A stretch of 4,716 bases of DNA from IMG/VR virus record IMGVR_UViG_2695420897_000007. One strand, given 5' to 3'. Of this stretch, positions 2,839-3,569 are shown piece after piece. The notes beneath the pieces were generated by a model. It made no database searches. It saw nothing but the letters and a program-made list of their open reading frames with translations, and was not told the origin of the DNA. The stretch comes from a virus. Taxonomy: Duplodnaviria > Heunggongvirae > Uroviricota > Caudoviricetes. A program made the position numbers and the translations under genes. Position 1 is the first letter of the stretch, and each line of letters opens with the position of its first letter.

Positions 2839-2856
2839 ATTTTATAACCCATATAC

Positions 2857-2884
2857 GGGCGCCAGAAATGGCGCCTTTTTTATT
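2857..2884 (+). terminator. Putative rho-independent terminator downstream of J (tJ-like)
   Basis: A 6-bp palindromic GC stem (GGCGCC 2858-2863 pairing with GGCGCC 2870-2875) around a 6-nt loop (agaaat), followed directly by TTTTTTATT (2876-2884). It sits 19 nt after the J stop codon. Confidence 0.6.
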
Positions 2885-2894
2885 GCAGAAAAGC

Positions 2895-2900
2895 GAGAGG
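2895..2900 (+). promoter_or_regulatory. Shine-Dalgarno sequence for lom
   Basis: GAGAGG lies 5 nt upstream of the lom ATG at 2906 (gcGAGAGGtaattATG). Confidence 0.55.
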
Positions 2901-2905
2901 TAATT

Positions 2906-2977
2906 ATGCGTAAACTTTATGCCGCCATTTTGTCCGCAGCCATTTGTCTGGCCGTATCCGGTGCGCCTGCATGGGCG
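2906..2977 (+). other. Signal peptide of Lom (predicted cleavage after AWA, residue 24)
   Basis: N-terminal basic residues (MRK), then a hydrophobic core (LYAAILSAAICLAVSG), then A-W-A before SEHQ. Confidence 0.7.
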
Positions 2978-3505
2978 TCTGAACATCAGTCCACGCTGAG
3001 CGCGGGGTATCTTCATGTCTCGACGAACGTTCCTGGCAGCGATGAACTGAACGGGATTAACGTGAAATACCGTTATGAGTTTACGGACACACTGGGGATG
3101 GTGACGTCGTTCAGCTATGCAGGAGACAAGAATCGCCAGCTGACCCATTACAGCGATACCCGCTGGCATGAAGATTCCGTGCGTAACCGCTGGTTCAGCG
3201 TGATGGCGGGGCCGTCTGTGCGCGTGAATGAATGGTTCAGCGCGTATGCGATGGCGGGTATGGCTTACAGCCGTGTGTCGACTTTCTCCGGGGATTATCT
3301 CCGCGTAACTGACAACAAGGGGAAAACGCACGACGTGCTGACCGGAAGTGATGACGGTCGCCACAGCAACACGTCTCTGGCGTGGGGAGCTGGCGTGCAG
3401 GTTAACCCGACCGAATCCGTGGCCATTGATATTGCTTATGAATGCTCCGGCAGTGGCGACTGGCGCACTGACGGTTTCATCGTGGGTGTCGGTTATAAAT
3501 TCTGA
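2906..3505 (+). CDS. lom: Outer membrane protein Lom (Ail/Lom/PagC/OmpX-family 8-stranded beta-barrel); lysogenic-conversion moron
   Basis: 199-aa ORF, ATG 2906 to TGA 3503-3505. Its start MRKLYAAILSAAICLAVSGAPAWA-SEHQSTLSAGY matches lambda Lom as I recall it and is a typical Sec signal peptide with an AxA cleavage site. The C-terminal ...DGFIVGVGYKF ends in an aromatic residue, as outer-membrane beta-barrels do. Position between J and stf is as in lambda. Confidence 0.92.
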   Translation: MRKLYAAILSAAICLAVSGAPAWASEHQSTLSAGYLHVSTNVPGSDELNGINVKYRYEFTDTLGMVTSFSYAGDKNRQLTHYSDTRWHEDSVRNRWFSVMAGPSVRVNEWFSAYAMAGMAYSRVSTFSGDYLRVTDNKGKTHDVLTGSDDGRHSNTSLAWGAGVQVNPTESVAIDIAYECSGSGDWRTDGFIVGVGYKF

Positions 3506-3531
3506 TTAGCCAGGTAACACAGTGTTATGAC

Positions 3532-3558
3532 AGCCCGCCGGTTCAGGCGGGCTTTTTT
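3532..3558 (+). terminator. Putative rho-independent terminator downstream of lom
   Basis: An 8-bp stem (AGCCCGCC 3532-3539 pairing with GGCGGGCT 3546-3553) around a 6-nt loop (ggttca), followed by a T-run through 3558. It sits 27 nt after the lom stop and 12 nt before the stf ATG. Confidence 0.65.
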
Positions 3559-3569
3559 GTGGGGTGAAT

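Follow-up and report, generated by a model that had tools for sequence, protein, structure and literature searches.

The question raised by this locus is whether lom, a gene for an outer membrane protein lying between two phage tail genes, is a self-contained moron that brings its own signals for expression in the lysogen, or a module that depends on transcription coming from its neighbors. The window, which here means the whole stretch of 4,716 nucleotides that was analyzed, is the J-lom-stf stretch of a lambdoid E. coli prophage. Positions 2700-3700 of the window are 99.9% identical to E. coli O103:H2 12009 and other STEC prophages, and 94-96% identical to many Stx-converting phages. DNA similar to this part was found in 4,811 of 5,426 complete E. 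coli genomes (median, 2 copies per genome; maximum, 14), and the lom-bearing layout was found in 3,862 complete E. coli genomes. For comparison of the intergenic regions, 116 loci were gathered via the Stf N-terminal domain, and both gaps were catalogued; E. coli prophages dominate this sample.

The following features of the window are used throughout.

1-2838, plus strand: 3' part of J, the tail tip attachment gene, cut by the window start; stop codon TGA at 2836-2838.
2857-2884, plus strand: hairpin 1, a predicted J-distal intrinsic terminator; stem-loop at 2857-2876, T-run plus ATT at 2877-2884.
2895-2901, plus strand: Shine-Dalgarno sequence GAGAGGT, 5 nt before the lom ATG; at least 90% conserved in the aligned upstream-gap variants.
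2906-3505, plus strand: lom open reading frame of 199 aa with an ATG start; signal peptide in codons 1-24 (2906-2977), mature barrel at 2978-3502.
3532-3558, plus strand: hairpin 2 with T5, the predicted lom terminator; stem-loop at 3532-3553, T5 at 3554-3558, 11 nt before the stf ATG.
3570-4716, plus strand: 5' part of stf, the side tail fiber gene, which leaves the window; matches phage_tail_N (1.7e-67), Collagen (2.6e-18) and Phage_fiber_C.

The flanking genes were readily assigned. J carries the Pfam domains Phage-tail_3, Ig_J, Ig_J_second, Phage_Tail_Tip and Ig_GpJ_C, and it matches lambda J in the PDB (8iyk, E value of 0). The product of stf contains, at residues ~251-360 (window 4320-4650), a long collagen-like Gly-X-Y tract that accounts for the Pfam Collagen match (2.6e-18). 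The best PDB sequence matches of this tract are animal collagens, and its DNA has a local GC content of up to 0.72 and a strong AT skew.

We then analyzed the lom product. The preliminary description had placed a 199-aa Ail/Lom-family gene, with its own Shine-Dalgarno sequence and signal peptide, between two tail genes, and the searches bear this out. The protein matched Pfam PF06316 (Ail_Lom) over its full length (396.4 bits against a cut-off of 23; E value of 2.9e-119; residues 1-199 on model positions 1-199), and it also matched Pfam OMP_b-brl and PHROG 108, "Lom outer membrane protein" (1.5e-108). Against solved structures, the match to lambda Lom (9wso_C) had an E value of 1.4e-48, and residues 25-199 matched OmpX and Ail at about 1e-17; the matches to the solved 8-stranded OmpX and Ail barrels cover the whole mature Lom chain. 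The alignment of the mature OmpX and Ail chains begins at Lom residues 25-29, and by inspection the signal peptide is MRKLYAAILSAAICLAVSGAPAWA/SEHQ, with a basic N-terminus (MRK), a hydrophobic core and A-W-A. The C-terminus (...GVGYKF), also by inspection, ends in the aromatic residue typical of outer membrane barrels. A single-sequence AlphaFold2 model reached a pLDDT of 36.9, which was too low for use. Taken from these matches, the lom product is most likely the precursor of an 8-stranded outer membrane beta-barrel of the Ail/OmpX family.

The Pfam family is shared with Ail of Yersinia, OmpX of E. coli, and Rck and PagC of Salmonella. Since the protein scored below the NCBIfam equivalog cut-offs for Rck (105 versus 258 bits) and OmpX (94 versus 176 bits), it is a Lom-type paralogue and no orthologue of Rck or OmpX. 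The adhesion and serum resistance functions of Ail, OmpX, Rck and PagC should not be transferred to the window Lom without a test.

Several further observations concern the protein and its reading frame. A cysteine is unusual in an outer membrane barrel; residue 180 of the window Lom (3443-3445) is a cysteine in AYECSGSGDW, while lambda Lom and the window-type alleles of loci L061, L100 and L242 have glycine at this position. The Lom protein of locus L038 is identical to that of the window, the residue-180 cysteine included. A minus-strand open reading frame of 177 aa (2831-3364) runs antisense to lom and is open in L061 and L242 too; it is assumed to be a by-product of codon composition. The PDB entry 9wso, in which lambda Lom is chain C, contains two Lom chains, and when J and Stf were searched for as partner chains in 9wso, neither was in the entry.

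To locate terminators in the window, we applied a strict rule (a T5 tail and a stem of 7 or more pairs, 5 or more of them GC), with dinucleotide shuffles as the control. Two sites were found, compared with 0.008 expected per shuffled window. Both sites lie on the plus strand, with none on the minus strand, and both fall inside the intergenic part of the window, which amounts to 131 nt (2.8%). A looser rule gave no excess over chance across the window (5 sites found, 4.7 expected). Hairpin 1 is GGGCGCCA-GAAA-TGGCGCCT followed by TTTTTATT, with 8 pairs (6 GC) and an energy of -15.1 kcal/mol; hairpin 2 has 8 pairs (7 GC) and an energy of -17.6 kcal/mol and is followed by TTTTT. A hairpin with a T-run had been described in each gap around lom, with the proviso that their stability be calculated. 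Both are in place, and the calculated stabilities are strong for both.

The alleles of hairpin 1 show compensatory covariation: 95.5% of cells were paired and 5 of the 8 pairs were altered on both sides, values that none of 500 shuffles reached and that compare with 33-47% pairing in slid registers. Compensated changes among the alleles include C-G to U-A and G-C to A-U, and lambda has a wholly different stem, also compensated, at the same position. The T-run of hairpin 1 is a near-invariant T6 across the alleles except in lambda, where it is T4. Hairpin 2, with a T-run of T5-6 across the alleles, is near-identical everywhere. Its four stem substitutions comprise three one-sided changes that preserve the pair as a G-U wobble and one that breaks the pair, none being compensatory, and covariation is uninformative here because the stem changes are one-sided only. 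The assignment of hairpin 2 as a terminator, which is conserved but without covariation support, rests on its energy, T-run and position. As predicted from these features, both hairpins look like genuine intrinsic terminators of the plus strand.

A search of Rfam at E values up to 1 returned only two chance-level matches in the window, and the window is therefore without a known sRNA or leader. Just before hairpin 2, in the lom 3' untranslated region (3515-3527), lies the perfect 13-nt palindrome TAACACAGTGTTA, which lambda shares without change and most alleles conserve. It may serve as a binding site for a protein or form a weak stem in the RNA.

Which part of this arrangement travels with lom was read from relatives in which lom is absent. 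In 3 of the 116 loci (L018, L023 and L037), J runs straight to stf, in the order J stop...GGGCGCCAGAAATGGCGCC TTTTTTATT TGTGGAGTGAATATG(stf). The junction itself reads ...GGCGCCTTTTTTATT/TGTGGAGTGAATATG(stf), that is, hairpin 1 and its T-run fused to the stf ribosome site. The comparison defines one further feature.

2885-3557, plus strand: lom indel unit of 673 bp (leader, open reading frame, 3' untranslated region, hairpin 2 and T-run), delimited by the lom-less junctions.

The boundary of this unit has a 2-nt ambiguity, TT microhomology alone marks each junction, and both junctions sit in terminator T-runs. The exact 21-mer of the lom-less junction occurs in 86 IMG/VR stretches; 80 of these were fetched, and in 78 of them J precedes and stf follows the junction, with lom nowhere in the locus. 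The lom-less junction stretches represent three different J C-terminal classes. Among the 5,426 complete E. coli genomes, 1,156 contain the contiguous junction annotated as gpJ followed directly by a tail fiber gene.

Since hairpin 1 is kept when lom is absent, it is a J-distal terminator that is independent of lom and outside the cassette. The description of lom as bracketed by two hairpins has to be given up at its upstream end, as hairpin 1 then directly precedes stf. The gene after J, whether lom or stf, begins 11-29 nt past a terminator. What we show here by sequence comparison is that the unit gained and lost, 2885-3557, appears to be a promoterless module behind the T-run of the J terminator.

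The indel unit has a leader of 21 nt, which carries the Shine-Dalgarno sequence, and the distance from the T-run to the lom ATG is 21-23 nt. A consensus scan found zero promoter-like sites on the plus strand anywhere in the window. With a simple -35/-10 weight matrix built from consensus frequencies, the best score in 2500-2905 was 6.16, against a mean shuffle maximum of 8.43 for the same 406 nt; reference scores from this matrix are 9.3 for lac and 13.1 for lacUV5. Both scans are blind to activator-dependent and non-sigma70 promoters, and within that range they agree with the earlier remark that no sigma70 -35/-10 pair precedes lom. A search of the J-lom gap for -10 hexamers only gave nothing convincing (TATAAC and TTTATT), and a PhoP-box search of the window and lambda found none. 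With no promoter in the segment that lom-less relatives lack, the cassette can no longer be called self-contained.

The base composition of lom was compared with that of its neighbors. The GC content of lom is 0.557, compared with 0.554 for the stf N-terminus, 0.570 for J overall and 0.573 for the window. The earlier impression that lom is less GC-rich than central J is literally right (0.557 versus 0.647), but it does not single out lom, as the J C-terminal domain is at 0.518 and stf at 0.554.

The moron definition derived from HK97 and HK022 (Juhala et al. 2000, as summarized by Cumby et al. 2012, PMC3594210) includes an own promoter and deviant GC content. Like those morons (PMC3594210), the window lom is an extra gene between essential late genes and is dispensable for virion assembly. 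It is present or absent at the same site in close relatives, and it has its own predicted terminator, hairpin 2 with T5, inside the indel. No promoter was found within the element by the consensus and weight-matrix scans (21 nt precede the ATG), and no deviant GC content was found relative to the stf N-terminus, J or the window; two defining features of a moron were therefore not observed. The classic moron layout claimed for lom accordingly survives for presence/absence and the own terminator, but not for the promoter and the GC content.

The lom element is textbook biology, and the preliminary description had rightly called it established; the gene is well known and very common. In lambda, lom (J02459/NC_001416, 18965-19585) has the same position between J and stf, belongs to the same protein family, and has a hairpin with a T-run in both gaps at the same places as in the window. 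The downstream gap and the stf 5' end of lambda are nearly identical to those of the window, while lambda Lom (206 versus 199 aa) is 46% identical to the window Lom in amino acid sequence over the barrel. What is added here is the exact boundary of the indel, the position of the upstream hairpin outside the cassette, and the lack of a promoter and of a GC signature.

More distant relatives differ from the window in these respects. STM0920 of the Salmonella phage Fels-1 and lom of Stx2 phage 86 belong to the same family (30-42% identity), lie in tail-gene clusters and are followed by a terminator-like hairpin. STM0920 sits between gpM and gpL homologues, with a gene GC content of 0.457 against 0.56-0.57 in its flanks and an upstream region of 126 nt at 0.317. 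The upstream region of the phage 86 lom is 90 nt with a GC content of 0.233 and contains promoter-like sites. These Fels-1 and Stx2 phage 86 genes come closer to the full definition of a moron than the window cassette does. In Fels-1 (L205, 1390-1406), a PhoP-box-like cGTTTAgtatcGGTTTA (cGTTTA-gtatc-GGTTTA, 1 mismatch) lies ~100 nt upstream of STM0920, which suggests that STM0920 may be under PagC-like PhoP control.

In lambdoid phages, RNA polymerase modified by Q passes the terminators of the late operon; no sign of Q antitermination is visible in the window itself. Late transcription of stf must cross both terminators, and Q-modified polymerase would permit this; we therefore infer that lom would chiefly be a late gene. 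Our preferred explanation, which we consider probable, is that lom is a promoterless module transcribed mainly by late read-through, with weak expression in the lysogen from an unmapped source. During lytic growth, late transcripts would run on through lom and its two flanking hairpins to enter stf, and the lom product would be made chiefly as a late gene product. In the repressed prophage, stray transcription from upstream would be kept out of lom by hairpin 1, and any lom transcript would end at hairpin 2 before reaching stf. The expression of lom in the lysogen would then be low and may come from leakage through the terminator or from a weak non-canonical start hidden from sequence analysis.

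Published work on Lom agrees with this proposal in part. According to a 2025 study, Lom expression climbs sharply late in infection, and Lom overexpression provides strong defense against lambda-vir and none against T7, but Lom levels in the lysogen are too low to block lambda-vir (PMC12366544). The lom promoter was never defined, and one microarray of a lambda lysogen gave no lom signal (PMC2147009); our own literature search found no mapped lom transcription start. On the other side, lom of phi24B is reported to be constitutive and unchanged by induction (PMC3342100, PMC4651098), in a context that is AT-rich and different from that of the window, and reviews report expression of lambda lom in the lysogen. 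Since lysogen expression is reported for lambda and phi24B, some transcription start exists in at least those phages. Lom has also been linked to adhesion in the literature.

If lom is promoterless and behind a strong terminator, finding it in a genome is a poor guide to whether the lysogen expresses it. This matters because lists of prophage virulence or fitness "morons" regularly include lom, which ~70% of complete E. coli genomes carry, often with more than one copy each. Under the same condition, the role in lysogenic conversion that was derived from lambda should not be extended to all lom alleles. The exact cassette boundaries, together with a natural lom-less control allele, would be useful for testing the proposed anti-adsorption role of Lom.

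A more specific version of late expression is that in this lineage lom does not serve lysogenic conversion but depends on Q as a late gene, with the J terminator as its gate, so that Lom would reach meaningful amounts only in cells committed to lysis, where it may curb the non-productive adsorption of sibling phages (self-exclusion). We put this forward tentatively, as a possibility that has the odds somewhat against it. The exclusion genes llp of T5 and cor of phi80 and N15 are a precedent for such placement: a gene for an envelope protein lies beside the gene for the receptor-binding protein and is co-transcribed with it late. They resemble lom in placement, without shared ancestry. They differ from lom in that lom alleles are unlinked to particular J C-terminal classes: no coupling between lom allele and J C-terminal class was seen, window-type lom is found with numerous J classes, and both lom types occur in the 58% J class. 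We know of no receptor-blocking mechanism shown for Lom. If self-exclusion is true, it would account for the retention of a promoterless lom beside the genes that set host range, and for the gain and loss of the module taking place at terminator T-runs.

On the other hand, lom may be the classic self-contained moron after all, with its own lysogen-active promoter of a non-canonical or activator-dependent type and with lysogenic conversion as its main role. The promoter would have to lie in the 67-nt J-lom gap or in the last J codons, with hairpin 1 in or overlapping the 5' untranslated region. Besides the reported lysogen expression of lambda and phi24B lom, two sequences speak for this. The first is TTATAACCC, which lies before hairpin 1 and is conserved across the J allele classes; its TATAAC resembles a -10 element better than any other hexamer in the gap. 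The second is a good -10-like TATTAT located just past hairpin 1 in lambda and absent from the window allele, and lom alleles may therefore differ in promoter content. However, TTATAACCC is equally present in lom-less phages and is therefore no lom promoter; the upstream gap, this sequence and hairpin 1 all persist without lom, and a promoter there would then drive stf. The TATAAC lacks the final T and a -35 partner, and transcription starting upstream of 2857 must cross a hairpin of -15 kcal/mol and its T-run. The shortness of the leader within the indel (just 21 nt) and the missing GC signature of lom also weigh against such a cassette, and we regard it as unlikely for the window.

The relation of the hairpins to exchange between alleles was also investigated. 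Three lom allele classes (the window, lambda and L078 types) share 46-61% amino acid identity between classes, and their comparison defines a conserved block.

3420-3968, plus strand: block of at least ~90% identity across the three lom classes, comprising the last ~85 nt of lom, the gap, hairpin 2 and the stf 5' end.

In a sliding comparison between the classes, ~50% identity gives way to at least 90% at ~3420, within lom, and the high level persists across the downstream gap into stf. This identity step inside lom, rather than at hairpin 2, argues against the cassette as the unit of exchange; it indicates that allelic exchange proceeds via a conserved linker formed by the last Lom beta-strand and hairpin 2, and that the hairpins are not the module borders.

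The least probable reading, and one we hold to be very unlikely, is that the hairpins are not primarily terminators, being instead mRNA stabilizers or processing barriers, or a DNA "linker" for mosaic recombination: both hairpins are inside an operon that needs transcription through them, the next start codon follows each by 11-29 nt, the hairpin 2 region is at least 90% identical across alleles that are otherwise ~50% identical, and breakpoints of the indel and of rearrangements lie at or in the hairpins, but T-runs, which a stabilizer does not need, follow both (T6 for hairpin 1, T4 in lambda; T5-6 for hairpin 2), both are strand-specific with no T-run on the minus strand, the structure of hairpin 1 is kept while its sequence drifts, which is not expected of a DNA linker, and unrelated terminator-like hairpins follow the lom homologues of Fels-1 and Stx2 phage 86.

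A scan of GTDB genomes returned mostly lambda DNA in assemblies from unrelated genera, and little diversity was gained. The lambda-type J-lom-stf region (L005-L017, L020 and others) occurs there on low-coverage genome contigs (genome_contigs) labelled Pseudomonas, Shewanella, Oceanobacillus, Kitasatospora, Bradyrhizobium and others. It looks like contamination by lambda DNA, because those contigs match the window J, lom and stf at phage lambda's own percent identities.

Individual loci carried rearrangements of their own. Locus L061 was considered as evidence for a further boundary of the cassette, 20 nt ahead of the lom ATG, and was rejected, as it proved to be an IS66-family insertion: the element (~1-2320) has taken the place of hairpin 1, and its end is 20 nt from the ATG. 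In L100, the stretch just before hairpin 1 is occupied by an IS3-family element (~1050-2270). L242 (763-6800) contains a tandem duplication of ~1.5 kb in which lom, the gap before it and a C-terminal piece of J are repeated, giving the order J-lom-J'(241 aa)-lom-stf, and its two lom copies have diverged. In L111 (2700-3000), a breakpoint in hairpin 2 fuses stf to an unrelated open reading frame.
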